Of a stretch of DNA of 64,000 nucleotides, positions 7,051 through 39,967 are shown in pieces (position 1 is the first letter of the stretch; each line of letters starts with the position of its first letter). Both the position numbers and the translations under genes were made by a program. The DNA comes from an uncultured Acidimicrobiaceae bacterium (lineage in GTDB: Bacteria > Actinomycetota > Acidimicrobiia > Acidimicrobiales > Bog-793). The DNA lies in assembly GCA_963804765.1 (NCBI GenBank), contig CAWDRQ010000046.1:85580-149579 (forward strand), written 5' to 3'. A model generated the notes under the pieces. It searched no databases and had not been told where the DNA came from. It saw nothing but the letters and a program-made list of their open reading frames with translations.

Positions 7051-9685
7051 TTGCCGGTGGGGCACCGGGAAAGCTCGGACTTGACTGCCGTGGGAGCAGA
7101 CCGAGTCGCCAGGGCAATGACCAGCGTTCTCGGCTCGACCGCAGCCGTGCGTGCCGGGCCGGTTCTGGTGTTTGCTTGCGACCGCGACGGCATCCTCACC
7201 TTCCTCGACGGAGGCCTCCTGCCCGAGCTTTGTGAGCTGCCCGGTGTCTTGCTCGGGCGCAGCTTGTCCACCGTCCTCGAGGACTACCCGGAGCTGGTCG
7301 ACCTCGGGCGACGCCTGCTCGGTGGCGAGCGGCTCGAGTTCGCGTCGATCGCCCTCGCCGGACGCCAGATGGAGGCCTGGGGCGTCCCGTTGCGTACGGC
7401 GTCCGGCGAACCGGACGGCGCCGCGGGGATTCTCGTGGACATCTCGGCTCGCGTCGCCGCCGAACGGTCGCTGCTCGGCGCCGCGCGCCGCGAGACGGCC
7501 CTCGTGGAGCACGCCTCGGACGCCATCTTCGTCATGACACCCGACGGTCGGCTGCGGTCTGCCAACCCGGCTGCTCACCGTCTCCTCGGCCAGGCCTGGA
7601 GCGACGGCGAGGTGCTCCATCTCGAGTTTCTCGTTCATCCCGAAGACCACGACCGCGTGCGACGCCATTTCACCGAGGCGGCCGTGCACCGAGGGAGCAC
7701 GCTGCCGATCGAGTACCGAATCGCACACGCGGATGGCAGCTGGCGCACCGTCGAGTCCGTCACCGACAACATGATCGACGACCCCGCAGTCAACGGCTTC
7801 ATCGTCACGCTCCGGGACGTCACCAGCCTCCGTGAGAGCGAGGAGCGCCTGGCCCAGAACGCCGGGCGCCAGGCGGCGCTCGCGGACCTCGGGAGGTGGG
7901 CGCTGGTCGGGCTCGCCTACCCCGACCTCGTCGAGGACGCGGTCACCCTGCTCGCCGAGCAACTCCAAGTGGACTTCGTGCACGTGTTCGAGGCGATGCC
8001 GGACGCAGCCTTTGCGGCACTGACCGCCAGTCACGGTCACGACGCCTCCGGGCCGGAGCTGCTCTCGACCGATCCGACGTCCTCACCCGTGAGCTTCGCG
8101 CTTGTCACCCAGGAAACTCTGGTCTGTGACGATCTGGCTCGCGAGGCCCGGTTCGAGATCCCCGAGCTTTGGACCCGCTCGGAGGCGATGAGCGTGATCG
8201 AGGCGCCGATCCCGGGCCAGGACTCCCCCGCCGGTGTGCTGGGGGTCGGATGCCGGAGCCCACGGCGTTTTGCCGAAGAGGACGTGAACTTCGTCGTGGC
8301 TGTCGCCAATGTTCTCGCCGGTGCGGCCGCCCGCAGTCGGGCCGAGAGCGCGATCCGGGACCAGGTGCTTCACGACCCGCTGACAGGCTTGCCCAACCGC
8401 CTGGTGCTTGCCGAGCACGGCCACACGATCCTGGGACCCAAGCAGTCGGAGATGAGCGGGGTGAAGCGCACGGTGCTCGTGCTCGACATCGACCGCTTCA
8501 AGGAGATAAACGACACCCTGGGGCACGCCGTCGGCGACCTTGTCCTCCTCGCGGTCGCGCACCGGCTCCGTGAGCTCGGCGACCCGGTCGAGCTCGTGGC
8601 CCGCCTCGGCGCGGACGAATTCGCCGTCGTCGCCTCGAGCGTCGCGGAGCAGGCCGACGCCGATGCAATAGGCGCTCGCCTGCTCGCGGCACTTGCCCAA
8701 CCGATTGACGTCGCAGGCGTGCGGCTCCGCCTACGCGGAAGCGTCGGTGTCGCCGGAGCCGACGTGGACGACAGGGGCGTGAGCCTCGGCGTGCCTGCCC
8801 TGCTGAGACGCGCTGGAACTCGCGATGCACCTGGCGAAGGCGGAGCACCGCGGGATACGCCACTACAGTGACGAACTCGAGCGTTCCAGCCTGTCGCGCC
8901 TCGCGCTCGCGAGCGAGCTGGCCGACGCCCTCGACAAGAACGAGTTCCACCTCGACTACCAACCGAAGATCGATGCCCGCACCAGAATCGTCGCGGGTGT
9001 GGAGGCCGTCGTACGGTGGCGCCACCCAACCCGTGGCCTGCTGCTCCCCGATGTCTTCGTTCCTCTCGCGGAGCAGACAGGCATGATCCGCGAGCTCACG
9101 AGCTGGGTGCTTCAAGAGGCGTTGTCGGCATGCGCGGGTTGGCATCGCGCGGGACGCCTGATCCCCGTGGCCGTGAACTTGTCGGCCGCCACCCTGCACG
9201 ACCCCGAGCTCATGGACGCGGTCACGACCGCCGTGAGCCGTTCGGGGCTGCCGCCGGAGTCCATCGAGCTCGAGATCACCGAGAGTGCCATCATGTTCGA
9301 CCCCGAGGGGGCGCTCCAGAGCCTCGAATCCCTCGTCAGCTTCGGCGTGAGGCTCTCCCTCGACGATTTCGGCACCGGCTACTCGTCGCTCTCGTATCTG
9401 CAGCGTCTTCCCGTCATCGCGGTCAAGATCGACAAGTCCTTCGTCGAGCCGCTCCTGAGCGACGACAGGGCAAAGGCGATCGTCCTTGCAGTGGTCAACC
9501 TTGCCCACAGCTTGAGCCTGTCGGTCATCGCCGAGGGGGTCGACTCCGAAGCGGTGATGGAGCAGTTGATCGCGCTCGGCTGCGATGCGCTTCAAGGCTT
9601 CTACGTGGCGAGCCCGATGAGCCCGAACCGCCTCGAGCGGTGGATCGCCGCCAACTCGCCTTCAACCACACGGCGGGTGCTCTAG
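7051..9685 (+). pseudogene. PAS-GAF-GGDEF-EAL c-di-GMP signalling protein, split by a net +1 frameshift at about 8815-8816 at the GGDEF/EAL junction
   Basis: ORF 7051..8871 carries PAS-like and GAF-like regions and a GGDEF domain (DPLTGLPNR, DIDRFKEINDTLGH, RLGADEFAV). It leaves frame at ...PALLRRA. The next frame reads ELAMHLAKAEHRGIRHY and continues as ORF 8825..9685, an EAL domain (EAVVRW, DDFGTGYSSLSYL, KIDKSFV, AEGVDSE, GCDALQGF). Removing one G from the GG at 8815-8816 gives LLRRAELAMHLAK, matching the usual LLRxADxAMYxAK end of GGDEF domains. Confidence 0.85.
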
Positions 9686-26065: not shown

Positions 26066-27024
26066 TCAGAGCTCTCTCAAGACGCCGACCCGTTCGGCGA
26101 GATCGAGGGCCCCGAACCGTACTGGCTCCTCTGACGGCAGGTCGAACGGCGCCAGCCAGAGCCGCGAGGTCGACTCCGTCACACTGCGCGGGAGGCAGGC
26201 GGGCCTTCTGTTGGGGGCCTCGCCGATCTTCTCCAGGGCGCGGATCAGGCCTGGTGGGTAACGGGTGACTGCGACCGCCGCAAGATCAGCCAACGGCTCA
26301 CGGCCGTGGCCGGCAACCCTGTCGGCAATCCTGGCAAAGGTCGGGACATAGCCTTTGAGCGGGTCGAAAGCCAGCACGGCGATGGCCCCCGAGACCGTGT
26401 CACCACGTTTTATGTGCGCCAGCTCGTGTGCCAACACCGCCTCGAGCTCGATCCGGTCCAAGAGCAGGACGAGACCGCTGGTGACGAAAACGACGCCGTG
26501 GTCGGGCGAGCGGCCCACCGACACCGCGTTCGGCGCCGGGTCGTCCAGGACACGGATCTCCGCGCTCGGCAGACCGAACACGGCGAACAACCCCTCTGCG
26601 ACGTCGGCCAGACGCGCAGCTTCGCCGGCGCTGAGAATGCTGGGTCGCCGCTTGGCGGTGACCACCGTCCCGCCCAGCCGCTTCGTCAGCACGCTGGCCG
26701 CGCGCGCGCCCAGGTCAACCACGACACCAACGCGATCGCACAGGCGATCGCGACCCCGGCGATCAAGAAGTCCATCGAGACGACTCCGAGCACGATCAGC
26801 ACGATCCCGACACTGAGGGGAGCCACAAGAGCGGCCGCGGCCCGCCGCCGGCTCGCACGTGCCGCGTGGCGCCAGACGGCGTCCCGGCGCCGGGCGGCCG
26901 CGGCCAGCACTGCCCTTGAGGCCTCGTAGGCGGCCTGTTGTGCCTCGACGGCCCGGCGCGCCCTCCCGTCACTGTCGGAGGCACGGCGCTGCCAGCGCGT
27001 CCGGTCCCTCGCGCCTGGAGTCAT
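26066..27024 (-). pseudogene. M48-family zinc metallopeptidase (HtpX-like). Either frameshifted (net -1 near 26722-26745) or two overlapping ORFs.
   Basis: ORF 26066..26722 carries HELAHIKRGD (HExxH). ORF 26686..27024 encodes two TM helices (LVAPLSVGIVLIVLGVV, FLIAGVAIACAIALV). The helix reads on smoothly in the downstream frame (..CAIA-VGVVVDLGARAASVL..). Combined length 959 nt, which is 2 mod 3. Starts 10 nt after the pimA stop. Confidence 0.6.
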
Positions 27025-27034
27025 TTGCCCGAGG

Positions 27035-28153
27035 CTACCCGGAACGGGCCGTGCGCCCTAACCGGACGTAGGCCTCCCGGTACGAATCGGCGACCGCCCC
27101 CATGTCGCACTCGCGCGCGCGCTGGCGTCCCCGATCTCGGAGAACCTCCCGTTCGCCATGGTCCAAGAGCAGGGAAAGGATGGCTCCGGCGAGCGCGACC
27201 CGGTCGCCTGCAGGCACGTAGCGAGCTGCCTGCCCGGCTGCAAGTTGATACCCGGGGAGGTCCGAAGCGACAACCGCTGTGCCTGCGGCCATCGCCTCCA
27301 GCAGTACGACCCCGAAAGACTCCCCTCCGAGCGACGGCGCTGCGAAGACGTCCGCGCCGGCCAGGCGTGCCGCCCGCTCCTCGTCCCCGACAGGCCCGAG
27401 CCACTCGATCCGGGCGTCCGAACCGAAACGGCTCCTCAGCCGCTCGGTCTCGGGCCCGTATCCCAACACCCACAGATGCGTCGACCCCGGCAATAGCCCG
27501 AATGCCTCAAGCAGCACCTCGAGCCCCTTGCGAGATTCGTGACGGCCGACGAACACGACCGTCGGCGCGCTCGTGGGCCATGGAACCGCCGAAGAGAACC
27601 TTTGCACCTCGACACCGTTCGGGATGATCCCGACCCGGTTCGACAGGTGCCCGACGCAAGCCCGAGCGGTGGCGCCTGCTTCTTCCGACACGGCGAAGGC
27701 GGCATCGAGCCGACGAGACCACGGCCCTACGATGTGCCCGTACGCTCGGTAGGCGAAGTCGGCCCCAGAACGATGAAAGGTGCCGACGATGGGGCGCGGC
27801 CCGGCAACGACGGCGGCGAGCGAAGGACCGGGCACGAACGGCTCGTGCACATGGACAATCTCAGGAGCGAACTCGTGCAAGGCCGAGACCGTGCGCGACA
27901 TCGTCGCCGGCCACGGCGAGACGGGCGCGCGCGATCCGTTCACCGAGACCGAGGTTCCCGTCCCCACTTTGATGAAGACAGCGCCGTCGAGCTCGGCGGG
28001 ATCGACCCGGCCGGTCCTGCCTGTGCCTTCTGCCGGAGCCACAACGGCTACATCGTCCCCCCTCGATCTGAGCGCTCTTGCGAGGCCAAGGACCTGTGTC
28101 TGTACCCCACCCGGCATCGTGCAGCTGTACGGGCATACGAGCGCGATCCGCAT
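27035..28153 (-). CDS. pimA: GDP-mannose-dependent phosphatidylinositol alpha-mannosyltransferase (GT4)
   Basis: MRIALVCPYSCTMPGGVQTQVLGLARAL resembles the PimA N terminus. GT4 E-x7-E region GGESFGVVLLEAMAAG. Sits in the conserved pgsA1-patA-pimA neighbourhood. Confidence 0.85.
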   Translation of the reverse strand: MRIALVCPYSCTMPGGVQTQVLGLARALRSRGDDVAVVAPAEGTGRTGRVDPAELDGAVFIKVGTGTSVSVNGSRAPVSPWPATMSRTVSALHEFAPEIVHVHEPFVPGPSLAAVVAGPRPIVGTFHRSGADFAYRAYGHIVGPWSRRLDAAFAVSEEAGATARACVGHLSNRVGIIPNGVEVQRFSSAVPWPTSAPTVVFVGRHESRKGLEVLLEAFGLLPGSTHLWVLGYGPETERLRSRFGSDARIEWLGPVGDEERAARLAGADVFAAPSLGGESFGVVLLEAMAAGTAVVASDLPGYQLAAGQAARYVPAGDRVALAGAILSLLLDHGEREVLRDRGRQRARECDMGAVADSYREAYVRLGRTARSG

Positions 28154-28320
28154 CGGCCATGACGCTATCGGCAGCGCCCGGCTCCTACCGGGTCATTCGG
28201 TCGCTACGCGCGCCGCGCCTGTGCTTTGAGCGAATCGAGGTGAGTCCGCGGACGCCGCCCGGTTGCCGGTTGTTCGCGCCCACGAGTGTTGTGGCTGCGG
28301 ATGAAAGCGTTCCACGCTTC

Positions 28321-28764
28321 TCATGGTTGTTTGCACTCTGTCCCCGAGGTGGCAATCGTGGTCTCACCGGTGGCGGCCGATTCGGCGCTCGCCCAATTGG
28401 TGCCCACCGATGCCGCCACCTTGAAGTAGTAGTTGCCTGCCGTGAGGGTCCCACTGGTCCACGACGTCGTGGCTGCCGTGCCAGTGGACGAGTATGTGCC
28501 CGCCAAGGTCGTCGCCTTGTAGATCGTGTAGCTCGAGGCGTCAGTGACCGCGTTCCACGAAACCGTCACGGTCCGTCCGCTGGAGGACACGCACAGGTCC
28601 GAAACGCCGCTTGGTGCAGATGGCCCCGGCTTGGCCTGGGCCTCGCCGTTGCTCCCGGTGTGGAGCGCGAGCGTCCAGTTGGACCCGGCGGCGGGGACGA
28701 CGGTTGCCAGCACGACAGCGACGAGGATCCCAGCAGACAGCGGCGCGAGTGGCGTGCGGGCCAA
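28321..28764 (-). CDS. secreted or anchored FN3-domain protein (paralog pair member 2)
   Basis: N-terminal hydrophobic segment LSAGILVAVVLATVV, then NWTLALHTGSNGEAQA, then an FN3-like pattern VTVSWNAVTDASSYTIYKATTLAGTYSS...YYFKVAA. TTG start at 28764. Confidence 0.7.
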   Translation of the reverse strand: MARTPLAPLSAGILVAVVLATVVPAAGSNWTLALHTGSNGEAQAKPGPSAPSGVSDLCVSSSGRTVTVSWNAVTDASSYTIYKATTLAGTYSSTGTAATTSWTSGTLTAGNYYFKVAASVGTNWASAESAATGETTIATSGTECKQP

Positions 28765-28804
28765 CGTTCGTGGTCGTTGCTCGCGCCGTTGCCTGCTATG
28801 GCGG

Positions 28805-29470
28805 TCAGCTCGCCCAGGCGTCGGTGGCCGGGCTCGTCGTCACTGTCGCGGCGCCACCGGTGGCGGTGACACCGGTGAGCGACGGCATGGAGAAGTACGT
28901 GTTCTCACACGCCGCCGGGGCGGCGAGGGCCATGGAGGCGTCGTTGGTCAAAGTGACCGTCAAGGGGTTGCCCGTCCCGTTGTAGGCGGCGACCGTGACT
29001 GGCGTCGTCAATGTGTGCGAGCTGCCGCTCGTGCCGGTCGCGTAGTTCCAGGAGACGTCGCTCGTGGTCGACGAGCAGCCCGACTGAGCGGTCGACAAAG
29101 AGCTCGTCGTGTACCCGGAGGCGTAGCTCGTGTTCGCCGGCAAGTTCACCGCAGTGATGGTGACGGGGAAGGCATTCGGGTTAGAGATCGTGAGCACCAC
29201 GTCGCCGTTGCCGCCGGGGTACAGGACGTTCGTGGCGGCCGGGGACGCGACGGCGGTGATCGTCAAGTTGGACACCGTCGCCGACTGTGCCTCACCGCTC
29301 GCGCCGGCGTTGAGCCCGACGGCCCAGTTCGTCGCCGCATAGGCGCCACCTCCTGCGAGAAGGGCACCGAGCACCGCGCTTACAAGCTTCGTCTTACGCG
29401 ACCAAGGCGTGCTGGTCCTGCTGTGCGCCTTGCCGTGACCCGTACGACCTCGAACGCTTAACGCAGACAC
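28805..29470 (-). CDS. secreted or anchored beta-rich (Ig-like) protein (paralog pair member 1)
   Basis: Positively charged N terminus, hydrophobic LVSAVLGALLAGGGAYAA, then NWAVGLNAGASGEAQS. The rest is Ser/Thr/Asn-rich beta-strand-like sequence with two Cys (SGCSS, AACEN). GTG start at 29470 with GGAG 8-11 nt upstream. Confidence 0.72.
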   Translation of the reverse strand: MSALSVRGRTGHGKAHSRTSTPWSRKTKLVSAVLGALLAGGGAYAATNWAVGLNAGASGEAQSATVSNLTITAVASPAATNVLYPGGNGDVVLTISNPNAFPVTITAVNLPANTSYASGYTTSSLSTAQSGCSSTTSDVSWNYATGTSGSSHTLTTPVTVAAYNGTGNPLTVTLTNDASMALAAPAACENTYFSMPSLTGVTATGGAATVTTSPATDAWAS

Positions 29471-29497
29471 GAAAGATCTCCCGTTTCAATCCGTGAG

Positions 29498-29517
29498 GTG
29501 TTCCCTCATTGGAACAC
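29498..29517. promoter_or_regulatory. perfect 7-bp inverted repeat GTGTTCC-N6-GGAACAC in the leader of the secreted-protein genes
   Basis: Read directly: gtgttcc ctcatt ggaacac, 28-47 nt upstream of the GTG at 29470. Could be an operator or a 5'-UTR hairpin. Confidence 0.35.
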
Positions 29518-29563
29518 TGCCTCCGGTATTTCGACAGGATTCTTAGGCTCTTTAACCCCGAAC

Positions 29564-29591
29564 GTACGGAATTTTCATCAGTACCGTACTG
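29564..29591. promoter_or_regulatory. composite site A: GTACGGA-N8-CAGTACCGTACTG (13-bp 6-1-6 palindrome), candidate LuxR-type operator
   Basis: Read directly at 29564-29591. Lies between the PAS-LuxR stop (29600) and the secreted-protein gene start (29470). A near-identical copy lies at 31498-31526. Confidence 0.5.
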
Positions 29592-29599
29592 ATTTCCTT

Positions 29600-31408
29600 C
29601 TACGTGTCCTGTTGCGGAGCGATCCCTTCGAGGTCCTGTTGGGCACTCAGGGCAGCGCGAGTCAAACGCGAGAACTCAGCCGCGGCCTCCTCTCTGGTGC
29701 GGACTCCGAGCTTTCGGTAGCTGTGCGCGAGATGCGACTCGACGGTCCGGACAGAGACCGAGAGATGCGCGGCCATCTTCGGGGCTGTGAAGCCCTCGCA
29801 CAGGAGTGTGAGTATCTCCGTCTCTCTCGGTGTGAAGCTTGCGAGGAGCTTGCCCGCCGTCATCGCGTGCGCCACGAGCTCGCGCTCGAGGCGCTTGCGC
29901 TTGGTGATGTCTTCTACGATGCGCAAGCCATAGATCGGCGCGCCATGCTCACCCCGGATGATTGAAGCGGTCACACTTGCGAAGACAACGTCTCCGACAT
30001 CAGTGACGAAGCGTGTCTCGGCCTGATAGCCCGGGATCATCTCCGCTGACAGCCTTCGCGCGAGCTCGGACTGTTTGTCCGCGTCTTCGGGGTGGGCGCA
30101 GGATGCGAAAGTGGCCCCCACGAGCTGGTCTCTCGTCCGTCCGACGAAGTGGCACAGCGCCCGATTCGCGTCCACGATCCGCGAATCGAGGTCGACGAGG
30201 GCAATCCCGAGAGGCCCCTCGTTGAAAACCTGACGGAACCGTTGCTCGCTCTCGCGGAGTTCCTCCTCGGTGCGCCTGCGTTCTGTCACGTCACGAACGC
30301 TCCAGACGCGCCCGACAGCCACACCGTCCACGTACTGCGGCTTCGAGTAACGTTCGAACACTTGACCGTCCTTCAACTCCAACGTGTCGCTCGACTCGGC
30401 ATCGGGGTTGGCGTACAGCTCAGCCACCTTGGCCCGGAACTCCTCCGGCTTGGCCAACTGGTCAATCACGAACGAGATCACAGCCGCGCCATCTCGTGCG
30501 GCCAGAATCGAGTCGGGCAGTCGCCACATCTCGGCGAACTGACGGTTGTGGCTGGAAATTCGGCCGGAGGCATCGACCACGAGGATGCCGTCGGCGGTGG
30601 ACTCGAGCGTTGCGGTGAGCAGCGACAGGGTGTCACGAAGCTCGAGCTCGGTCGCGACTCGTACCGTGATGTCGCGACCGGACACAACGAACCCCCCGAC
30701 GGTCGGATCGTCGAGCAGATTGACGAACGAGAGCTCGAACGGCACTGTCTCGCTGCTCGCGTGGCGGCGGAGCTGCACCACGACCGTCACCGGTTTGCAG
30801 GAGGATGCCCCGAGAGACGCTCGCTCGAACGCGTCGCGGAGCTTGGCGCGGTCGGCTTCGGTCACGAGCTCGGCCAGAGGCTGGCCTTCGACGAGCTCGG
30901 GATCGTGGCCCAACAGCCGGCTCAGTGCTGCAGAGACGGAGTCCATCACCCCAAGGGGCGAGACCAGCATCGTCACGTTGGCCGCATTCTGGACGAGGGA
31001 TCGCAGGCGGGCTTCTTCGTTGCGAGCGACTTCAAACCGTCTTCGCTCCGTCAGGTCCCGCAGACTGAAGAGAACCGCTTGACCGCCGAGCCAGTTTATC
31101 GGTGAGCCGATGACCTCCAAGAGGCGCCAACCCGTAGCGGTCTTGGCTCGAACCTCTATGAGGGTGCCCGTCTCCTTTCGCTGCACGCTCACGAGCGACC
31201 GCAGGACTAGCTCCACATCCTCGGGGTGCACGAGATCAAGTGCTGGCAGTCCTATCGAGTCCTCGAGCGACCGGCCGAACATGCGCTCCGCCGCGTGGTT
31301 TCCCCACTGCAGTAAGCCTTGTGGGTCAAGAACGATCACCGCATCGGGAAGCAACCAGGCCAACATCTCGTTCTGAGATTCGAGCCCCGTCATAGTCGCT
31401 CCGTACAC
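29600..31408 (-). CDS. multi-PAS sensor fused to a LuxR/FixJ-type HTH transcriptional regulator
   Basis: At least three PAS-like repeats (LPDAVIVLDPQGLLQWGNHAAERMFG; TADGILVVDASGRISSHNRQFAEMW; GPLGIALVDLDSRIVDANRALCHFVG). C-terminal HTH: TPRETEILTLLCEGFTAPKMAAHLSVSVRTVESHLAHSYRKLGV. No receiver domain. Confidence 0.88.
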   Translation of the reverse strand: MYGATMTGLESQNEMLAWLLPDAVIVLDPQGLLQWGNHAAERMFGRSLEDSIGLPALDLVHPEDVELVLRSLVSVQRKETGTLIEVRAKTATGWRLLEVIGSPINWLGGQAVLFSLRDLTERRRFEVARNEEARLRSLVQNAANVTMLVSPLGVMDSVSAALSRLLGHDPELVEGQPLAELVTEADRAKLRDAFERASLGASSCKPVTVVVQLRRHASSETVPFELSFVNLLDDPTVGGFVVSGRDITVRVATELELRDTLSLLTATLESTADGILVVDASGRISSHNRQFAEMWRLPDSILAARDGAAVISFVIDQLAKPEEFRAKVAELYANPDAESSDTLELKDGQVFERYSKPQYVDGVAVGRVWSVRDVTERRRTEEELRESEQRFRQVFNEGPLGIALVDLDSRIVDANRALCHFVGRTRDQLVGATFASCAHPEDADKQSELARRLSAEMIPGYQAETRFVTDVGDVVFASVTASIIRGEHGAPIYGLRIVEDITKRKRLERELVAHAMTAGKLLASFTPRETEILTLLCEGFTAPKMAAHLSVSVRTVESHLAHSYRKLGVRTREEAAAEFSRLTRAALSAQQDLEGIAPQQDT

Positions 31409-31497
31409 TACAGATGCTGGCCGTTGGCCGCAGAAGCAAAGAACATGTCACCCGCCTAATGTTGCAGCCGCCGGCGGCTCGTCCTTGAGGCATCTAT

Positions 31498-31542
31498 GTA
31501 CGGATAAATGCGTCAGTACGGTACTGGCTGTTTTCTCCGTAC
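31498..31542. promoter_or_regulatory. composite site B: GTACGGA-N9-CAGTACGGTACTG-N9-TCCGTAC, a 45-bp nested inverted repeat in the divergent promoter region
   Basis: Read directly. The outer arms GTACGGA and TCCGTAC are reverse complements. The core is the same 6-1-6 palindrome as site A. Lies between the LuxR-type gene start (31408) and the candidate small ORF start (31550). Confidence 0.5.
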
Positions 31543-31549
31543 CCTTCCA

Positions 31550-31826
31550 GTGCGCCTGGACTCGGTCCCCCTGGAAGTGCTCAAGCTCGTTTGAGAACAT
31601 CTACCTCGAGCTCGCGGACCAGTACGTCGCCCATCTCTCGCTGGTGCGGGCTCAGACGATCGCGGCTCGGGGCTGGTCGCTTGAGGGAATGGTCGACGCC
31701 GTCCTCTTCGAGCTCGAGCGCTTCACCGAGGCGGTCGAAAGATCCGGAAGTCCTGCCGGCTTGTGTGAGGCCGCTCAGCTCAAGACAAGGCCGAACGAGA
31801 CCTGGCCGGCAACGGACCCTGGCTGA
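31550..31826 (+). CDS. hypothetical small protein (~91 aa), apparently needing a +1 correction in the TTT run at 31590-31592
   Basis: GTG at 31550 opens VRLDSVPLEVLKLV*, with 12 of 14 codons ending in G/C. The adjacent frame continues (F)ENIYLELADQYVAHLSLVRAQTIAARGWSLEGMVDAVLFELERFTEAVERSGSP..., also with very high GC3. The upstream part of the listed 113-aa ORF has low GC3. No family recognised. Confidence 0.35.
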
Positions 31827-31893
31827 CACCGTCGCGTGACCTCGCGTGTCATCCCCGTGTCACGCCCGCAGGACTGCCAGGTAAACCTGCATT

Positions 31894-32793
31894 TCAGCGG
31901 TACAGCTCGCGGTCTGACGGCCAGTTCGGCTGGAACAGGTGCCACTGCTCGGGTGCCAGGCGGACGAGCCCCTCGAGAGAACGCGCCATCTCCTCGGTGA
32001 GACGCTGCACGTCCTTGCGCAGTCGCCCAGTGCGTGTCGAGTCGAGCGGGGGCTGCAGCAAGGCGTGGTACTGGCCACGCGGCCTCTGATAGATCGCGCA
32101 CGTCATCAGCGGCGCACCTGAGCGCAGGGCAAGGAGCGCAGGGCCCGCGGGCAGCGTCGTCTTCTCCCCGAAGAACTCAACTTCGACGCCGTTGCCGACA
32201 AGGTCACGGTCTGCCAACAATCCCACGACGCGGCCTGCCCGCAGTGCGTCCAGGAGCCGGACGGTGGTGTCGGGCCCTGGCGGTAGCACGGTGAGCCCGA
32301 GCATCGCTCGCTGCGAGGTGAACCAGTCGAACAGCTCGGGAGGCTCCAGCAGCTCGCCAACGGTGGTCATGGGATATCCCTGCTGAGCGAGCCAGCGACC
32401 CCCGTACTCCCACGAGCCGACATGGGGAAGCACGATCACAACACCGCGGCCCCTCGCCATCTCCAGTCGGAAGCGCTCGAAGCCCTCGATGCTGAAGGTC
32501 GACTCGATCTGGTCCGACCGCAGAGCCGCCACCCGTGCAGACTCCACCCAGTACTGCGCATAGGAGCAAAACGCCTTGGTGACGAGTCGGCGGAGGGCAG
32601 TTTCCTCAGCCTCGGGACCGAGCACTCGTCGCAGGTTGGAATGCACGAGTGGTCGCTTGTCGCGCCAGACCCCTGAGATCGTCAAGCCCGCCACACTCGC
32701 CAGGGCATCGGCAATCGGACGAGGAGTCACCTGCAGTGCTGCCGCGATGCCGCGATAGGCGAGGTAGCGGGCCCACTGCTCTGGCGTGGCCAT
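31894..32793 (-). CDS. patA: phosphatidylinositol mannoside acyltransferase (LpxL/HtrB-type lysophospholipid acyltransferase family)
   Basis: VVIVLPHVGSWEYGGRWL acyltransferase motif. Positioned between pgsA1 and pimA as in mycobacteria (Rv2611c). ATG at 32793 (MATPEQW); the ORF track extends to 32940 and overlaps pgsA1. Confidence 0.78.
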   Translation of the reverse strand: MATPEQWARYLAYRGIAAALQVTPRPIADALASVAGLTISGVWRDKRPLVHSNLRRVLGPEAEETALRRLVTKAFCSYAQYWVESARVAALRSDQIESTFSIEGFERFRLEMARGRGVVIVLPHVGSWEYGGRWLAQQGYPMTTVGELLEPPELFDWFTSQRAMLGLTVLPPGPDTTVRLLDALRAGRVVGLLADRDLVGNGVEVEFFGEKTTLPAGPALLALRSGAPLMTCAIYQRPRGQYHALLQPPLDSTRTGRLRKDVQRLTEEMARSLEGLVRLAPEQWHLFQPNWPSDRELYR

Positions 32794-32836
32794 CAGCGAC
32801 TGCGCGAGTATTTCCGACCGGACTGCGGAGCTGCGC

Positions 32837-33793
32837 TCAGGTATCGCTCCCAGGGCGCCGGCGGCGCGCCGATCCGACGACGAGACGGCGGCGCTCGGTC
32901 CGAGGACCGACCCTGCGACTGCCAGAGCGCTCGTTGGCAAGGACGCGGCGCAGTCTCACAGTCAGTGGCTCAGTCCGGCGCCGGGCACGCACGCGGCTCG
33001 GCGTGGTTGCCCGGCGCCTCGTGCCGTTGGCGCGTGGCTGGCGCCACGACTGCCAGCGCGACTCGACGCGTCCGCGGCGCCATGGTCCACGCGTGGCGGC
33101 AGAGCTCGCCGCCTCTGGGCTCGCCTGGCGCCAGACCTTCACAAATCGCTGCGCCGCGGTGAAGACCGTCAGAACCAGAAGCAGCCCTAGCAGAGGCACC
33201 AAGACCACGTGGAGCACCAACGCGACACCGAGCAGGATGAGCCGCTCGGCCCGTTCCATGAGGCCGCCTTTGGCGTCGTAACCGAGGGATTCTGCCTTCG
33301 CTCGCTCGTAGGAGATGACCGCGCTGACCCCGAGGATCGAGAACGGCAGCACCGCCAGGCGCGGCTGGGTGCCGGAGGCGAAGTACCACGCCACGCCGCC
33401 AAAGATCAGGGCATCGGACACCCGGTCAGCGACCGAGTCGAAGAAGGCGCCCTTCTTTGAGGCTGTGCCCGCTGCCTTTGCCACGACGCCATCGAGGGTG
33501 TCCATGAGGCCGCCGATAGTGAGCAGCACCACGGCGACCCAAAAGTGCCCGAGACCGATGATCACGCCGGTGAGGCCGGCGAGAAGGATGCCGACTACTG
33601 TGACCTCGTTCGCCGTGACGCCGCGTCGTGCGAGGCGGGCGCCCACACCGAAACCCGTGCGGATCCCACGCCCCGGCGACGTGGCCTCCAGCTCGGCAGG
33701 CGGCGTCGGCTCAGGGGTCAGCGCGGCCTGATCGTCGACTGCGACATCTTCGATGCCGCTCGCCGCTGACTGGCCCCGGTGGCCGTCGATCAT
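32837..33793 (-). CDS. pgsA: CDP-alcohol phosphatidyltransferase (phosphatidylinositol phosphate synthase type) with a ~100-aa Arg-rich C-terminal tail
   Basis: DTLDGVVAKAAGTASKKGAFFDSVADRVSD matches D-x2-DG-x2-AR-x8-G-x3-D-x3-D. Multiple TM helices. The tail after ...AAQRFVKVWRQ is Arg-rich and low complexity. Confidence 0.85.
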   Translation of the reverse strand: MIDGHRGQSAASGIEDVAVDDQAALTPEPTPPAELEATSPGRGIRTGFGVGARLARRGVTANEVTVVGILLAGLTGVIIGLGHFWVAVVLLTIGGLMDTLDGVVAKAAGTASKKGAFFDSVADRVSDALIFGGVAWYFASGTQPRLAVLPFSILGVSAVISYERAKAESLGYDAKGGLMERAERLILLGVALVLHVVLVPLLGLLLVLTVFTAAQRFVKVWRQASPEAASSAATRGPWRRGRVESRWQSWRQPRANGTRRRATTPSRVRARRRTEPLTVRLRRVLANERSGSRRVGPRTERRRLVVGSARRRRPGSDT

Positions 33794-34003: not shown

Positions 34004-36067
34004 GTGAACGCCGTGCCGTCCGCGAAGATCCGCAACGTCGCGCTCATCGGCCATGGCGGTGCCGGCAAGACAACCCTTGCCGAAGCACTGCTCGTAGTTG
34101 GCGGCGTGCTGTCCCGACCGGGACGGACAGAGGACGGGACGACAGTCTGCGATTTCGAGCCCGAAGAGGTCAAGCGGCACATATCGGTCTCGTTGGCTCT
34201 GGCTCCGTTTCTGTTCGAGGACTGCAAGATCAACGTCATCGACACCCCGGGGTACGCCGACTTCATAGCCGAGGTCGAGGCGGGCTTGTCGGTCGCCGAC
34301 CTTGCCGTGCTCGTCGTCAGTGCAGTCGAGGGCGTAGAGGTTCAATCCGAAGAGACCTGGCGGCTGGCTACCGAGCTCGGCATTCCCAGGCTCGTGTTCG
34401 TCAACAAGCTCGACCGCGAGCGCGCCGACTTCGAGAGAACGCTGGACCAGCTCCGCGAGCGCTTCGGATCAGGCATCGCGCCCTTGGAGCTGCCCATCGG
34501 AAGCGAGGTGGCCTTCAACGGGATAGCGGATCTCCTCTCCGACTCGGCCATCACCTACGGCGCAGGCAAGCCCACGACCGGGCCTATCCCCGAGGACATG
34601 TCCGAGCTTCAGCATCGTGTCCGCGAAACCCTGATCGAAGGCATCGTCGTCGGTGACGACGAGATGATGGAGCGGTACCTAGAAGGCGAGGTGCCTTCCA
34701 CCAAGGACCTGGAATCCACGCTCGCCCACGGTGTCGCCTCCGCGAGCGTGTTTCCTGTCGTGTGCGGGTCGGCCCTCACTGGCGTTGGCGTCGACCGCCT
34801 GGCTTCGCTGATCTGCGCGATCGGGCCGAGCCCGCTCGCGCGACGGTCGTTCACGGTACGGGCGGGGAACGACACGATCGAGCTCCCCCGCGATCCGGAC
34901 GGGCCGCCTCTGGCCCGAGTCTTCAAGACGATCGCCGACCCCTTTGTCGGACGGATCTCTCTCATGAACGTGCTCTCCGGAACGCTCCGGCCCGACATGA
35001 CCCTCTTCGACAGCCGCAGCCACTCCGAGGAGAAGCTGCACGCTCTCCAAGTCATGCGCGGCAAGGAGACCCAGCCCACCTCCGCCGCGCCCGCCGGCGA
35101 CATCGTCGCCGTCGCGAAATTGAGCGGCGTGTTGACCGGCGACACGTTGGCACCGAAGAACCAGCCGGTGGTTGCAGAAGGACCCAGACTCCGCACCGCC
35201 GTCCTTTCCATAGCGGTCCACCCGAAGGCCAAGGGTGACGATGACAAGCTCATGACGGCCATCCACCGTCTGCAGGAAGAGGACACGGCGCTCGTGGTCC
35301 GCCGGGATGACGAGACACACCAGACCGTGCTTTCCGGCATGGGTGACACGCACTTGCAGATCGTGTGCGAGAAGCTGAACCGCAAGTTCGGCGTAGCGGT
35401 CGAGACCGAGCCCGTCCAGGTTCCATACCGCGAGACGATCACCAAGCCCGCCGAGGCCGAGGGCAAGTACAAGAAGCAGACCGGGGGTCACGGCCAGTTC
35501 GGAGTTGCCAACCTGCGGGTCGAGCCGCTCGAACGCGGCGAGGGCTTCGTGTTCGTGGACGCGATCGTCGGCGGCGCGATTCCCCGACAGTTCATACCCG
35601 CCGTGGAAAAGGGCATCCAAGAAGCGATGATCACAGGGGGCCACTTCGGCTACCCCGTCGTCGACGTCCGGGTGACCTGCTACGACGGCAAGTACCACAC
35701 GGTGGACTCGTCGGAGATGAGCTTCAAGATGGCGGCTTCGCTGGGCTTCAAGGAGGCGCTGGCCGCTGCCGGCCCGGTGATACTCGAACCTGTCTGTCGG
35801 CTCGAGGTCACGGTGCCTGCCGCCTATCAGGGCGACATTCTCGGTGACCTTAACTCGCGGCGGGGTCGGGTGCTCGGTACCGAGGCCGGAGAGCGCGGTG
35901 AACAGGTCGTGATCGCGTTGGTGCCGGCGTCGGAGATACAGCGGTACGCGACCGACCTCCGTTCGCTCACAGGTGGCCGGGGTCGTTTCGCCGTGCGCCA
36001 TGACCATCACGAAGTGGTGCCGGCGCCGATCGCCGAGAAACTGGCCAAACAGGCGGCTGAAACCTAG
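34004..36067 (+). CDS. elongation factor G-like GTPase (EF-G paralog)
   Basis: G1 GHGGAGKTTL, G3 DTPGYADF, G4 NKLD, and EF-G domains II-V recognisable (GKYKKQTGGHGQFG). 687 aa. GTG start. Confidence 0.88.
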   Translation: MNAVPSAKIRNVALIGHGGAGKTTLAEALLVVGGVLSRPGRTEDGTTVCDFEPEEVKRHISVSLALAPFLFEDCKINVIDTPGYADFIAEVEAGLSVADLAVLVVSAVEGVEVQSEETWRLATELGIPRLVFVNKLDRERADFERTLDQLRERFGSGIAPLELPIGSEVAFNGIADLLSDSAITYGAGKPTTGPIPEDMSELQHRVRETLIEGIVVGDDEMMERYLEGEVPSTKDLESTLAHGVASASVFPVVCGSALTGVGVDRLASLICAIGPSPLARRSFTVRAGNDTIELPRDPDGPPLARVFKTIADPFVGRISLMNVLSGTLRPDMTLFDSRSHSEEKLHALQVMRGKETQPTSAAPAGDIVAVAKLSGVLTGDTLAPKNQPVVAEGPRLRTAVLSIAVHPKAKGDDDKLMTAIHRLQEEDTALVVRRDDETHQTVLSGMGDTHLQIVCEKLNRKFGVAVETEPVQVPYRETITKPAEAEGKYKKQTGGHGQFGVANLRVEPLERGEGFVFVDAIVGGAIPRQFIPAVEKGIQEAMITGGHFGYPVVDVRVTCYDGKYHTVDSSEMSFKMAASLGFKEALAAAGPVILEPVCRLEVTVPAAYQGDILGDLNSRRGRVLGTEAGERGEQVVIALVPASEIQRYATDLRSLTGGRGRFAVRHDHHEVVPAPIAEKLAKQAAET

Positions 36068-36080: not shown

Positions 36081-36887
36081 TCAGACCGTCAGAGAGCTCC
36101 ATGCGGCAGCGACATCCCGATTCCCCGTCAGCTCGAGTGCCTCGACAGGTCTGCGGTTCCAGCAGAACAGGTAGAGGTCTGACGCGGAACCGACGAGGAC
36201 CGCGTCGGCGGGCGCCCTGCCCTCGCGCCAGCGCAGCCGGCCGGCGGCCACTTCCACCGTCCAGGCCGCAGCATCGTCAGAGCAGGCCAAGCAGAGCACC
36301 CCACCGAGCGAAACTTCCGGCGTCACGGGCACATCAGTCGCAAGGTGAACCCCGATCCACTCGTCGATCCCGTCGACGGCCAGGTCCCGGTCGATCGGCG
36401 TAGGCAAGCCGACCGAGATCTCGACGTCGTAACGGTGCACGGCCGACTCGAGCGCCATGCGCCTGCAGACCCAGCCAGCGGTGAGATCCTCGCCCGACCA
36501 GTTCCAACAGGGATCTTCCGGATCGCGGCCGGTGAGCGCGTGTCGTAGCTTCGCGCGGGCACCTTCGAGCCACTCCAAGATGTCCGCCCCGGCTGGCACG
36601 CCTCGTGACGCCGGCTCGGCCGGAGCGCCCGGCGATGCAGCCTCGAGCTGGGTTCTCCAGAACGTGAAGACATCACCCAGATGCCCGACCAGATCGGAGA
36701 CCTGCCATTCCGGGCAGGTCGGAACCGGGAGCTCGAGAGCGTCGCCACTCGCTTCGATGATGAGGTCGCACTCGCGCTCGAGTGCTGTGCGGTGCGATTC
36801 GTAGTCGAGGCGATGGTCGTTCACGAGCTCAATTCTCACCTGTCGCGGGCTCACGCTGATCGCGACGATCTCGCTGCCTCGGGCCAC
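36081..36887 (-). CDS. maleylpyruvate isomerase-family / DinB-like mycothiol-dependent enzyme (TIGR03083-like)
   Basis: N-terminal PVPTCPEWQVSDLVGHLGDVFTFW pattern, typical of actinobacterial DinB/MDMPI_N proteins. The start is uncertain because 36887 overlaps the upstream gene by 59 nt. Confidence 0.55.
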   Translation of the reverse strand: MARGSEIVAISVSPRQVRIELVNDHRLDYESHRTALERECDLIIEASGDALELPVPTCPEWQVSDLVGHLGDVFTFWRTQLEAASPGAPAEPASRGVPAGADILEWLEGARAKLRHALTGRDPEDPCWNWSGEDLTAGWVCRRMALESAVHRYDVEISVGLPTPIDRDLAVDGIDEWIGVHLATDVPVTPEVSLGGVLCLACSDDAAAWTVEVAAGRLRWREGRAPADAVLVGSASDLYLFCWNRRPVEALELTGNRDVAAAWSSLTV

Positions 36888-37328: not shown

Positions 37329-37868
37329 TCACCTCCAGGCTGCCCGCAACTTCGCCCAGCTGTCGCCCAGGGCTTCGGGAAGGACCCGAACCCCGGCGAC
37401 CGTTGTCATGAAGTTCGTGTCGCCGATCCATCGCGGAACGATGTGCACGTGCAAATGAGCGGGGATCCCCGCTCCCGCGGCCCGTCCGAGGTTCACGCCG
37501 AGATTCATGCCCTCGGGGCGATAAGCGGCCTTCACTGCCGCCACGGCGCCGTAGACACCACTAGACAGCTCGACGGCCTCCTCCGGCTCCAGCTCGCAGA
37601 GATCGCCCACGTGCCGCATCGGGAGAACCATCACATGGCCCGGGGAGTACGGGAAGGCATTGAGCAGCACCACGGTCGACGAACCCATCCAGAGCACATG
37701 TCGTACCTCGTCGGGCTCGCCGGATCGGATGATCCCGCAAAACACGCACGTCGCCTCTGGTTCGCCCGCGGAGGTTGGAACGCCACTCGGGTCGCTCGTG
37801 TCACCTGCGTCCCCGAACGAGCTCACGTAACTCGATCGCCAGCCCGCCCAGAGGTGGTCGAGACTCAC
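37329..37868 (-). CDS. HIT family protein (Rv2613c-like Ap4A phosphorylase type)
   Basis: AGIPAHLHVHIVPRWIGDTNFM histidine triad, CVFCGI, and a 4-nt overlap with the thrS stop. Same position as Rv2613c downstream of thrS. Confidence 0.85.
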   Translation of the reverse strand: MSLDHLWAGWRSSYVSSFGDAGDTSDPSGVPTSAGEPEATCVFCGIIRSGEPDEVRHVLWMGSSTVVLLNAFPYSPGHVMVLPMRHVGDLCELEPEEAVELSSGVYGAVAAVKAAYRPEGMNLGVNLGRAAGAGIPAHLHVHIVPRWIGDTNFMTTVAGVRVLPEALGDSWAKLRAAWR

Positions 37869-39880
37869 AGGGCTCCCGCAACGGTGCCGGGCCCACGACC
37901 GGGCGGCGGTGCCGCCTCCACACGTAGCTGCTCGACGAACGCGTCGACCCCGACACCGCGCTCAGGCTCGTCGGAGCCCCGCGCGTTGACGCCGACGGTC
38001 CCCTCAGCAACGTCGGAGTCGCCCACGACGAGGACATAGGGCACCTTCTCCAGTTTCGCGCGGCGGATCCTCGCCCCGAGAGGCTCCCCTGCATCATCTG
38101 CCTCGGCCCGCACTCCAGCCGCCGCCAGGAGTCCGCGAACCTGTCGCGCGTAAGGCGTGTGGTCGTCGCGCACGGGAAGGACCCGAGCTTGCACCGGCGA
38201 GAGCCAAGTCGGGAATGCGCCGGCGTAGTGCTCGACCAGCACCGCAAAGAAACGCTCGACTGACCCGAACAGGGCTCGGTGGATCATGATCGGTCGGTGC
38301 CTGGTGTTGTCCTGACCGACGTAGTCCATGTCGAAGCGCTGCGGTAGCTGAGTGTCCACCTGGATCGTCGACATCTGCCAGGTCCGTCCGATCGCATCGC
38401 GCGCCTGGACCGAGACCTTCGGACCGTAGAAAGCACCTCCGCCCGGGTCGAGCACCAGCTCGAGGTCCATGGTTAGCGCAGCCTGTCGGAGAGCCTCGGT
38501 CGCTTCCTCCCACTCCTCCACGGTTCCGACCGCTTTCTCCTCCGGCATGGTCGACAACTCGAGGTAGAAGTCCTCGAGGCCGAAGTCGCGAAGCAGGTCG
38601 AGCACGAAACCGAGCAACGACTGCAGCTCGGCCGCCATCTGCTCGCGAGAGCAGAAGATGTGCGCGTCGTCCTGTGTCATCCCGCGCACACGCGTCAGAC
38701 CGTGCACAACGCCCGATTTCTCGTAGCGGTAGACCGCGCCGAACTCGAACATCCGAAGGGGAAGCTCGCGGTACGAGCGCTGCCTGGACTTGAAGATCAG
38801 GATATGGAAGGGACAGTTCATTGGTTTGAGGTAGTAACGATGACCCTCGTCGAGCTCCATCGGCGGGAACATGCTCTCCGCGAACCACTGGAGGTGGCCC
38901 GACGTCTCGAACAGATCCGAGCGGGTGATATGCGGCGTGTTGACGAAGGAGTAGCCGGCCTCCATGTGACGCGCCCGGGAATAGTCCTCCATCACCTTGC
39001 GGACGAGGCCCCCTCTTGGGTGAAAGACTGCCAGCCCCGAGCCGAGCTCGGGGGGGAATGAGAACAGGTCGAGCTCGGCGCCGAGTCGACGGTGATCACG
39101 CCGTTCGGCCTCCTCGAGACGGTGGAGGTACGCCTCGACGGCCTTGTCGGACTCCCATGCCGTGCCGTACACCCTCTGGAGCTGGGGCCTGTGCTCGTCG
39201 CCACGCCAATAGGCTCCGGCAACACGGGTCAGCTTGAAATGCCCCAGGCGATCGGTCGAGGGCACGTGCGGACCGCGGCACAGGTCCACGAACCCCGGAC
39301 CGTTGCGATACGCGCTGACCGCACCGGGATTCCCGCCCGCCTCGGCCGCGAGCTCGGCGTCGAGGCCCACGGCAGCCTCGGCGACACCTTCGATGATCTC
39401 GCGCTTGAAGGGCTGGTCAGCGAAGAGCTCGAGGCCTTCCGCGATCGTGTGTTCCTCACGGACGAACGGCTGCGATTCGCCGACGATCGCCTGCATCTCC
39501 GATTCGATCCTGGCCAGGTCGTCCTCGGAGAAGCGGGCGCCCCGGGGGAGCTCGAAGTCGTAGTAGAAGCCGTCTGCGACGGCCGGGCCGATTGCGTAGC
39601 GTGCACCGGGCCAAAGCCTGAGGACCGCCTGTGCCATGACGTGCGCCGTCGAGTGGCGCAACACGCTGCGGCCCTCATCGGTGTCGGAGGTGACAATGCG
39701 CACCTTGGCGCCGTCGGAAATTGGCTGGGAGAGATCGACCAAGACGCCGTCGAGCTCAGCCGCGACCGCGGCGGCAGCGAGCCGCGGACCTATCCCCGCG
39801 GCAAGTTGCGCGATCGTCGTGCCGGCGGGGACACTGCGTACGGACCCGTCGGGCAAGAAGACCGTGACCTCGCTGGGCAT
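37865..39880 (-). CDS. thrS: threonine--tRNA ligase
   Basis: N-terminal TGS (VFLPDGSVRSV), editing-domain HSTAHVMAQA, class II core (FHPRGG, RVRGMTQDDAHIF), and C-terminal anticodon-binding domain. ATG at 39880 is preceded by GAGGAG. Confidence 0.94.
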   Translation of the reverse strand: MPSEVTVFLPDGSVRSVPAGTTIAQLAAGIGPRLAAAAVAAELDGVLVDLSQPISDGAKVRIVTSDTDEGRSVLRHSTAHVMAQAVLRLWPGARYAIGPAVADGFYYDFELPRGARFSEDDLARIESEMQAIVGESQPFVREEHTIAEGLELFADQPFKREIIEGVAEAAVGLDAELAAEAGGNPGAVSAYRNGPGFVDLCRGPHVPSTDRLGHFKLTRVAGAYWRGDEHRPQLQRVYGTAWESDKAVEAYLHRLEEAERRDHRRLGAELDLFSFPPELGSGLAVFHPRGGLVRKVMEDYSRARHMEAGYSFVNTPHITRSDLFETSGHLQWFAESMFPPMELDEGHRYYLKPMNCPFHILIFKSRQRSYRELPLRMFEFGAVYRYEKSGVVHGLTRVRGMTQDDAHIFCSREQMAAELQSLLGFVLDLLRDFGLEDFYLELSTMPEEKAVGTVEEWEEATEALRQAALTMDLELVLDPGGGAFYGPKVSVQARDAIGRTWQMSTIQVDTQLPQRFDMDYVGQDNTRHRPIMIHRALFGSVERFFAVLVEHYAGAFPTWLSPVQARVLPVRDDHTPYARQVRGLLAAAGVRAEADDAGEPLGARIRRAKLEKVPYVLVVGDSDVAEGTVGVNARGSDEPERGVGVDAFVEQLRVEAAPPPGRGPGTVAGAL

Positions 39881-39967
39881 CTGAACCACTCCTCGTACTG
39901 GCGACACCGGGTCGCACTCCGGAGAAGCTCAGCCTACCGGCCCGCTAGGACCGCTTTGTGGGTTGCA

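Follow-up and report, generated by a model that had tools for sequence, protein, structure and literature searches.

We analysed a 64,000-nucleotide stretch of contig CAWDRQ010000046.1 from an uncultured Acidimicrobiaceae bacterium (the whole stretch is hereafter called the window), in which patA and pimA, two genes of phosphatidylinositol mannoside (PIM) biosynthesis, are separated by 3740 bp that hold three genes and one remnant of an open reading frame (ORF). We find that this arrangement is best explained by an integration hot spot at the patA–pimA junction, where the scar of an island lies next to a portable cassette of three genes, a regulator and the two-gene sec operon that it is predicted to control. 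We give this reading a probability of about 70%. The coordinates of all features are collected in Table 1.

In the mechanism that we propose, a family of tyrosine recombinases would have its attachment site in the last ~35–45 bp of patA and deposit islands between patA and pimA, which would then decay and be remodelled into species-specific cargo. The window would retain ~300 bp of such an island beside patA, with the portable cassette filling the rest of the interval. Within the cassette, the PAS domains of the regulator may sense an intracellular or redox-type cue, and a regulator dimer would bind CAGTA(C)-N-(G)TACTG together with the adjacent CCGTAC half-site, just past the regulator’s own stop codon. 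Once bound, it would control the promoter of the bicistronic sec221–sec147 operon, whose mRNA would carry a conserved leader hairpin, and a duplicated operator/promoter block before the regulator may have added autoregulation in this genome alone. The products of sec221 and sec147, which appear to share their first ~20 mature residues, would be exported via Sec-type leaders, and pimA would keep working from its own −10-like element, probably as a leaderless transcript.

Comparison of the interval across the class carries much of this argument. A PatA scan with one genome per GTDB species yielded 80 loci. Every one comes from an uncultured member of the Acidimicrobiia, in most cases from a bog or soil metagenome-assembled genome (MAG); the loci and contigs compared in the analysis are denoted by L-numbers. 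The contig is too short to judge the distance to pimA in 18 of the 80, which leaves 62 informative loci. In 27 of these, pimA lies no more than 100 bp from patA, often with overlapping stop and start codons, as would fit translational coupling. The gap measures 101–1000 bp in three loci and exceeds 1 kb in 17 (20 insertions, 0.16–7.1 kb), and in 15 loci there is no pimA within at least 5 kb of patA.

At the closest patA loci, PatA is 77–86% identical, and the gaps of the 11 closest species measure 163 bp (L007), 0.4, 0.9, 1.5, 1.7, 2.0, 2.4, 3.5, 3.7, 5.7 and 6.3 kb. None of these 11 gaps contains a relative of the regulator or secreted proteins of the window. Their cargo is mutually unrelated: TetR, DegV and esterase genes in one case, integrase fragments with an insertion-sequence transposase in another, a VapBC-like pair, GntR with an ABC transporter, a pyruvate-kinase-like gene, and others. 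The 12 genomes of the clade, in fact, show 12 different interval lengths and contents at one and the same insertion point, as is typical of islands. The compact loci and the variable intervals together imply that contiguity of patA and pimA is ancestral, that this clade has a hypervariable interval and that the content seen in the window is lineage-specific. The comparison thus supports the view that the module is an insertion into an ancestrally contiguous patA–pimA pair. The original prediction had proposed exactly this, and had suggested looking at relatives for confirmation; the adjacency was recovered there and the module was not, so that its description as a fixed module does not hold.

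Tyrosine recombinases insert islands at the 3' ends of conserved genes, restoring the gene and leaving its end duplicated; tRNA genes are the classic targets, and protein-coding genes can serve as well. The patA 3' end behaves in this way. In both L001 and L004 the last 33–43 bp of patA are duplicated at the pimA-proximal end of the insert (copies at 10825 and 14165 in L001 and at 16486 in L004), the mark that site-specific integration leaves at a gene's 3' end. Fragments of a phage integrase begin 13 bp past the patA stop codon in L004, on the opposite strand. In L175–L177, two tandem tyrosine-integrase genes (313 and 365 amino acids; PHROG integrase, E 7e-65) and a 178-amino-acid gene form an array that converges on the patA 3' end. 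Homologues of the 365-amino-acid integrase of L175 lie 21–86 bp past the patA stop codon in L003, L004, L012, L047 and L073, the one in L047 being full length and 47% identical. In the more distant of the integrase-bearing genomes, PatA is just 48–54% identical to that of the window. We conclude that one family of integrases has its attachment site at the patA 3' end across the class. The module sits where it does because the end of patA is a recurrent hot spot of integrases specific for it. We met no published description of the patA 3' end as an attachment site, although no literature search was aimed at this target. We note two further features of the array (L175 918–2958, L176, L177): the first, 313-amino-acid recombinase has no Pfam catalytic-domain match on record, and the 178-amino-acid gene overlaps the second integrase gene by 4 nt in L175–L177, which suggests a three-gene integration module.

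The segment of the window next to patA is the scar of an integrase-bearing island. It holds the remnant part of an ORF, here called orf113 (113 amino acids), whose homologues of 140–197 amino acids match its residues ~38–113 only; orf113 matches nothing but the C-terminal part of the 178-amino-acid gene of L175–L177. L174 is 90% identical to the window over 31597–32001, and the homology begins exactly at 31597. We considered orf113, the small divergent ORF of the original prediction, as a genuine gene and rejected this option: its homologues reveal a truncated C-terminal fragment, an island remnant with its breakpoint at 31597. The spacer of the scar contains TGACACG at 31845–31851 and 31856–31862, with the inverted GTGTCAG at 31823–31829, and similar repeats follow the patA stop codon in L001, L003 and L013. 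These repeats are candidate recombinase-binding sites. A homologue of the 178-amino-acid island gene is also found in L170 (1–8370), amid genes that resemble a defence island (Multi_ubiq/ThiF/BubE, HTH_XRE with M78 peptidase, PDDEXK_4).

The site therefore resembles integrase-mediated islands in its fixed position at the patA 3' end, in an integrase that abuts the target in relatives, in the direct repeats of the target end that flank the L001 and L004 inserts, and in cargo that varies by species. It differs from them in that the target is patA, an acyltransferase gene of an essential pathway within an operon, and in that the window keeps the scar alone, without integrase or second repeat.

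The cassette fills the remainder of the interval, with the gene order regulator, sec221, sec147, all on the minus strand. We examined the genomic context of sec221 in 89 other loci. In about two-thirds of them the next gene downstream is a sec147 homologue, and in 25 the gene directly upstream is an orthologue of the multi-PAS LuxR regulator (67–81% identity). At least 25 loci besides the window hold the cassette, in differing neighbourhoods (glnA/ROK; GNAT/GGDEF-EAL; toxin–antitoxin genes). DNA homology to the cassette of the window runs from 31351, within the regulator gene, to the sec147 stop codon (28313–28321), and this shared homology, together with the recurring gene order, marks the three genes as a portable unit. 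The cassette is portable, probably regulates itself and belongs to an uncharacterised, widespread Acidimicrobiales family. The earlier description of the module as self-contained is thereby borne out, with regulator, operator and two secreted-protein genes found together elsewhere; its supposed tie to the PIM and envelope-lipid operon is contradicted, since none of the 89 other loci places the cassette next to patA or pimA.

Some sec221 loci are organised differently. Genes for GGDEF-EAL proteins, which act in cyclic di-GMP (c-di-GMP) turnover, lie upstream of sec221 in L091, L092, L097, L098 and L101 and downstream of sec147 in L087–L089, and in some loci such a gene replaces the PAS-LuxR regulator. 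Others carry two to three tandem sec221 paralogues; L151 (7001–12247) and L159 (7001–12238) each hold three sec221 paralogues and one sec147-like gene.

At the other end of the interval, homology to the relatives in the clade begins at or below 28193, leaving a spacer unique to this genome. A hairpin is predicted by RNA folding over the sec147 stop codon (28301–28324) and has no U-tract, and no conserved terminator was found after sec147 across the loci. Read-through from sec147 into pimA is possible, because no canonical terminator lies between them. The element CC(G/T)(A/G)TAGC(G/C)TC-N7-8-ATG stands upstream of pimA in 12 of 12 clade members, whatever lies further upstream, and no Shine–Dalgarno sequence is present before the pimA ATG of the window. 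The −10 pattern of actinobacteria is TANNNT, and leaderless transcripts are known in these organisms. The TAGCGT within the conserved element fits this pattern, and pimA is probably transcribed from its own, near-leaderless promoter. Such an element would explain why the site tolerates insertions.

These comparisons also bear on the possibility that the module is a fixed, functional part of the PIM operon, co-transcribed with patA and pimA or insulating them, and linking lipid synthesis to a surface-protein response. All genes do lie on the minus strand, the stretch from patA through the module to pimA yielded no canonical terminator, and the products of the module, like PIMs, belong to the cell envelope. 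Yet each of the 11 closest species carries other cargo at this site, the cassette elsewhere keeps away from patA and pimA, an island scar lies on the patA side, and the conserved element precedes pimA in every member of the clade. The comparative data largely refute this possibility, which we regard as scarcely credible.

The evidence for control by the regulator comes from the two spacers that flank its gene. As had been noted in the original prediction, they are richer in A and T than their surroundings (GC 0.55–0.56 versus ~0.66) and carry a repeated palindrome: the 13-bp sequence CAGTACSGTACTG occurs exactly twice in the 64 kb, at 29579–29591 and 31514–31526, once per spacer. At up to two mismatches there are three matches, a number that none of 100 shuffles reaches. 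The block between the regulator and sec221 consists of the palindrome CAGTACGGTACTG (29579–29591), the half-site TCCGTAC (29564–29570) and a T.AAG box (29547–29556); the copy upstream of the regulator has the palindrome (31514–31526), TCCGTAC (31498–31504) and CCTCAAGGAC (31481–31490). In the window TCCGTAC follows each palindrome by 8–10 nt, and in every locus the palindrome begins 8–10 nt past the regulator stop codon.

Alignment of the block yields the consensus ACGTAG-ARGAAATC-AGTAC-nn-TACTG-rCGAAAtT-CCCGTAC-N8-9-CCTmAAGG ... G.CGA.A, in which GTAC..(T)AC, CCGTAC, T.AA and G.CGA.A stay constant over the 15 loci of alignment A3. The composite GTA-N3-TAC-N6-14-CCGTAC has matches in 24 cassette loci, each at the regulator–sec221 junction, with variant forms in the regulator-linked loci L121, L125 and L132. 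It is absent upstream of sec221 in the five regulator-less loci inspected (L091, L092, L097, L098, L101) and has no occurrence in 80 control patA loci (1.35 Mb). The operator bases are invariant rather than covarying, which points to recognition of DNA by a protein, and the LuxR-type regulator encoded next to the block is the evident candidate. Its GerE helix-turn-helix (HTH) domain scores above the Pfam threshold, and the conserved palindrome lies beside the genes to be regulated, as in LuxR-type one-component systems. We infer that the regulator recognises the palindrome and half-site as its predicted operator.

An alternative is that the palindrome is a terminator hairpin of the regulator gene or a site for an unrelated protein, and that the regulator acts elsewhere. 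Its constant position shortly after the regulator stop codon would suit a terminator, a consensus scan called it terminator-like on the plus strand, and sec221–sec147 pairs without the regulator exist. As an RNA, though, it would form a stem of 5–6 mostly A/U pairs with a loop of 1–3 nt and no U-tract on the coding strand, and the palindrome and CCGTAC bases stay invariant, with no compensatory change, while the proteins are just 67–81% identical; the nearby leader hairpin, unlike the palindrome, does covary. The distribution of the motif, present in every regulator-linked locus (24 in strict form, three as variants) and absent from the regulator-less upstream regions inspected and from the control loci, follows the regulator as well. 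We consider this alternative unlikely and retain binding by the regulator as the preferred explanation.

The second block copy is a peculiarity of the window: no operator block lies upstream of the regulator in 14 other loci examined. It would add autoregulation here, and it may mark the recombination that placed the cassette beside the island scar. General autoregulation through a degenerate operator before the regulator was considered and set aside, as none was found in those 14 loci. In L085 (~7700–7770), a 22-bp sequence, GCGGGTACTGATCGCTCCCRCC, stands three times in tandem ~330 bp before a regulator-less sec221 paralogue. The operator half-site GTACTGA is part of every repeat, and the repeats could serve the regulator acting in trans.

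Downstream of the block, the sec221 leader holds a second conserved element, a hairpin ~45 nt from the operator block and ~15 nt upstream of the ribosome-binding site (29477–29482). Over 15 loci (A3 columns 100–119; RNAalifold and pair counts) compensatory changes are seen in six of its six pairs, the share of paired cells is 93% against 43–72% in slid controls, and none of 500 shuffles reaches its covariation score. A search of 27900–32100 against Rfam returned no family and one sub-threshold small-RNA match, inside the sec221 coding region. The hairpin could act on the translation or the stability of the sec221–sec147 mRNA.

Several observations weigh against the hot-spot and cassette reading. 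No integrase was found in the whole window by tblastn, nor any transposase; there is no tyrosine recombinase at either end of the interval, and direct repeats of the target 3' end (attL/attR) are missing, the patA 3' 24-mer CCAGCCGAACTGGCCGTCAGACCG occurring once in the window with no second copy at up to three mismatches. The original prediction had been correct in reporting no integrase, transposase or direct repeats here and had overlooked the scar. Delivery as island cargo and later recombination are both possible routes by which the cassette arrived. The regulator is not obligatory for the sec pair, about two-thirds of sec221 loci having none adjacent. The consensus scan called no sigma-70 promoter, and no minus-strand terminator either; the palindrome, placed directly after a stop codon, may act as a weak terminator; and regulator–operator binding, promoter positions and export are drawn from sequence. 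The fold search with sec221 used a poor model (see below) and matched nothing in Foldseek. Finally, the independent contigs cover only 30107–28258 of the window, and both junctions (~31597 and ~28190) lie outside this range.

The last point touches on whether the arrangement is an assembly artefact, a metagenome contig in which the regions of patA and pimA were wrongly joined to the cassette. The source is evidently of MAG type, its closest relatives all being MAGs. L179 and L180, same-strain contigs from other samples, are 99.9–100% identical to the window (within 30107–28258), reaching down to 28294 and 28258, respectively, and so end before the pimA junction. An exact-sequence look-up of the window PimA, made for a junction-spanning contig, gave none on record. 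Against this, neither junction holds a repeat that could mislead an assembler, the cassette matches its flanks in base composition and in GC by codon position, a gene is cut cleanly at the 31597 breakpoint, which is what a real deletion or recombination would produce, and the 100% identity of L180 extends 63 bp past sec147, into the spacer unique to this genome. Insertions at this site are the rule in relatives. We judge an artefact very improbable and hold to the hot-spot reading.

The regulator combines four PAS domains with a LuxR/GerE HTH. Its coding sequence begins with ATG 31393, which GGAG precedes by 7 nt; GTG 31408 is an alternative start. Pfam matches comprise PAS/PAS_4/PAS_9/PAS_7 and GerE (46.2 bits, cut-off 23.5), and TIGR00229 matches four stretches; phmmer found no match in the PDB, and a PADLOC scan matched only the HTH of the regulator. 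The PAS-LuxR regulators PimM, PteF, NysRIV and AmphRIV of Streptomyces have 152–243 amino acids and one PAS domain, and their operator, CTVGGGAWWTCCCBAG, is a palindrome near the target promoter (PMC9774167). The likeness is one of logic only: an N-terminal PAS part, a C-terminal LuxR HTH and no receiver domain. The window regulator has 597 amino acids and four PAS domains, and it stands beside secreted-protein genes, whereas the Streptomyces proteins target biosynthetic gene clusters. The PimM-type operator has four matches in the window at up to three mismatches, against 4.1 expected, none of them in the spacers.

Both secreted proteins begin with a hydrophobic leader that ends in an AXA-type site, AYA|ATNW in sec221 and AAG|SNW in sec147, and share the next ~20 residues (NW-x3-L-x2-GS-x-GEAQ). 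Their relationship is confined to this region: hhalign aligns the N-terminal part only (probability 95.8%, E 7.6e-9), and whole-protein BLASTP is not significant (E 1.1). In sec147, the C-terminal ~90 residues are confidently predicted by AlphaFold2 (AF2) to adopt an FN3 fold (pLDDT 79.5, and >90 over residues 50–140). Foldseek gives 34 PDB matches at E<=1e-3, those listed being almost all FN3 or FN3-containing; the best FN3 matches have E 6.5e-6 to 2.9e-5, with TMt 0.80 for 3mpc. Its conserved Cys pair is C58 and C144. The domain escapes the Pfam fn3 model, and a PHROGs scan matched only this FN3 part, as in phage tail decorations. These residues resemble bacterial FN3 modules such as the Fn3-like protein of Clostridium thermocellum (3mpc) and the module of CtXyl5A (5g56); sec147 itself, small and secreted, stands alone rather than within an enzyme and has a conserved N-terminal motif and a Cys pair.

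sec221 belongs to a large family of unnamed proteins. It has 1948 homologues at 65–88% identity, all from Acidimicrobiales metagenomes, and a full HMMER search of a 1.8-billion-protein set gave 632 clusters at 50% identity (E<=1e-3). Pfam, NCBIfam, PADLOC and PHROGs returned nothing significant, its alignment profile matched no PDB sequence, and a Pfam scan of ten remote relatives found no domain. The AF2 model (53 homologues) is beta-rich with a pLDDT of 55.7, its best Foldseek match has E 0.34, and the sole Pfam hint is Flo11 (E 0.096). A SipW/TasA-camelysin type is not indicated: neither the TIGR04088 signal peptide nor Peptidase_M73 was detected (NCBIfam E<=0.01, Pfam E<=10). Where two paralogous secreted FN3/Ig-like proteins had been announced, the FN3 fold is predicted with confidence for sec147 alone, and paralogy is limited to leader and motif. 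The domain and structure searches proposed at the time placed the regulator (PAS/GerE) and the sec147 FN3 fold, and gave no Pfam, NCBIfam or PDB family for the secreted proteins.

A surface or matrix role is favoured by the export leaders, by how strongly the proteins are conserved and by their association with PAS-LuxR and c-di-GMP proteins, and sec221 and sec147 are probably cell-surface or matrix proteins. A bolder and rather improbable suggestion is that they form the major and minor subunits of an undescribed extracellular fibre or surface layer of peat and soil Acidimicrobiales. The subunits would be joined by donor-strand-type complementation via the shared A-[ST]-N-W-x3-L-x2-G-S-x-G-E-A-Q strand, and the switch would be the four-PAS LuxR sensor or, elsewhere, GGDEF-EAL proteins. 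The breadth of the family, strong purifying selection (seen in the identity between species), the tandem paralogue arrays and the want of any Pfam, NCBIfam or PDB relative of sec221 fit this suggestion. The class-wide integrase family at the patA 3' end is the safer novelty of the two.

Table 1 Features of the window and of the patA–pimA interval, in order of decreasing coordinate
Feature	Position	Strand	Remarks
thrS	37865–39907	minus	
HIT gene	37329–37868	minus	
MDMPI/DinB-family gene	36081–36887	minus	between HIT and PIP synthase
EF-G2-like GTPase gene	34004–36067	plus	between HIT and PIP synthase
Candidate PIP synthase	32837–33793	minus	
patA (PIM acyltransferase)	31894–32940	minus	NCBIfam NF005919 equivalog, 238.7 bits (cut-off 209)
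Island scar	31597–31893	plus	3' part of ~178-aa gene (remnant 31597–31826) and 67-bp spacer
orf113 (113-aa divergent ORF)	31485–31826	plus	5'-truncated remnant
Extra copy of putative operator/promoter block	31481–31548	minus	upstream of regulator; homologous to regulator–sec221 block elsewhere
One-component regulator, 597 aa	29600–31393	minus	four PAS, LuxR/GerE HTH, no receiver domain
Conserved putative operator/promoter block	29547–29591	minus	between regulator stop and sec221
Leader hairpin	29498–29517	minus	sec221 5' untranslated region; GTGTTCC-AATGAG-GGAACAC
sec221, 221 aa	28805–29470	minus	predicted secreted or anchored, beta-rich; basic N-region, hydrophobic leader ending AYA|ATNW, two invariant Cys (alignment A1)
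sec147, 147 aa	28321–28764	minus	signal peptide AAG|SNW, shared motif, Pro-rich linker, FN3 (alignment A2)
Spacer unique to genome	28194–28320	minus	sec147 stop to conserved pimA-proximal segment
pimA-proximal segment	28154–28193	minus	TAGCGT (within 28161–28168), 8 nt before pimA ATG
pimA (GDP-mannose-dependent phosphatidylinositol alpha-1,2-mannosyltransferase, GT4)	27035–28153	minus	PDB; Pfam GT4 and GT1 domains
M48-peptidase-like ORF	26066–26722	minus	between pimA and yebC
yebC, ruvA, ruvB, yajC, secD	beyond M48-like ORF, in that order	minus	

Gene identities in the window were taken from the ORF listing and from Pfam, NCBIfam and PDB comparisons, which confirm the minus-strand gene order previously reported, with the module between patA and pimA. 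The pimA product matches the Mycobacterium smegmatis PimA structures 4n9w/2gej over its full length (residues 1–362, E 1.6e-53), the next GT4 structure following at E 2.5e-15; the assignment is based on PDB and Pfam, with no curated equivalog model behind it. The candidate phosphatidylinositol-phosphate (PIP) synthase scores 132.2 bits with NF045883 (cut-off 170) and 139.1 bits with NF040950 (cut-off 180), and its position in the cluster fits. The 3' part of this ORF (32837–33130, minus) encodes an arginine-rich C-terminal tail of ~95 residues and overlaps the start of the patA ORF; the tail is kept in the genus, tblastn spanning all 318 residues in nine of the 10 closest relatives (0.92 in L009). 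The window contains no tRNA genes.

In M. tuberculosis, the gene that follows pimA is Rv2609c, which differs from the M48-like ORF found here; the position of the latter between pimA and yebC is kept in most relatives. The EF-G2-like gene occupies the same position in most Acidimicrobiales loci, and together with the MDMPI gene it represents a second, older departure from the mycobacterial order. In Corynebacterineae the early PIM genes form a conserved six-ORF operon from Rv2614c thrS to Rv2609c, with Rv2613c, Rv2612c pgsA1, Rv2611c patA and Rv2610c pimA (PMC3229680). The window shares with it the order thrS, HIT, candidate PIP synthase, patA, pimA, and patA and pimA overlap or abut in many Acidimicrobiia as well. 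It differs in its Acidimicrobiales host, in the EF-G2-like and MDMPI genes between HIT and PIP synthase, in the M48-like gene after pimA and in the 3.7 kb of accessory DNA that splits patA from pimA, so that the immediate adjacency of the PIM cluster is not found in the window. The earlier comparison with mycobacteria and corynebacteria is thus useful as a distant reference and goes no further, the organism being represented by an Acidimicrobiales MAG.

In sum, the pgsA1–patA–pimA operon is not inviolate outside Corynebacterineae: more than half of the informative Acidimicrobiia genomes split patA from pimA, at least partly owing to a dedicated integrase family. How essential PIM synthesis stays expressed in these genomes becomes a testable question, to which a leaderless pimA promoter is a candidate answer. 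The module should not be annotated as belonging to the PIM pathway. Uncultured Acidimicrobiales of peat and soil are an ecologically important group in which the cassette is abundant, and its predicted operator and leader hairpin offer an experimental entry point.

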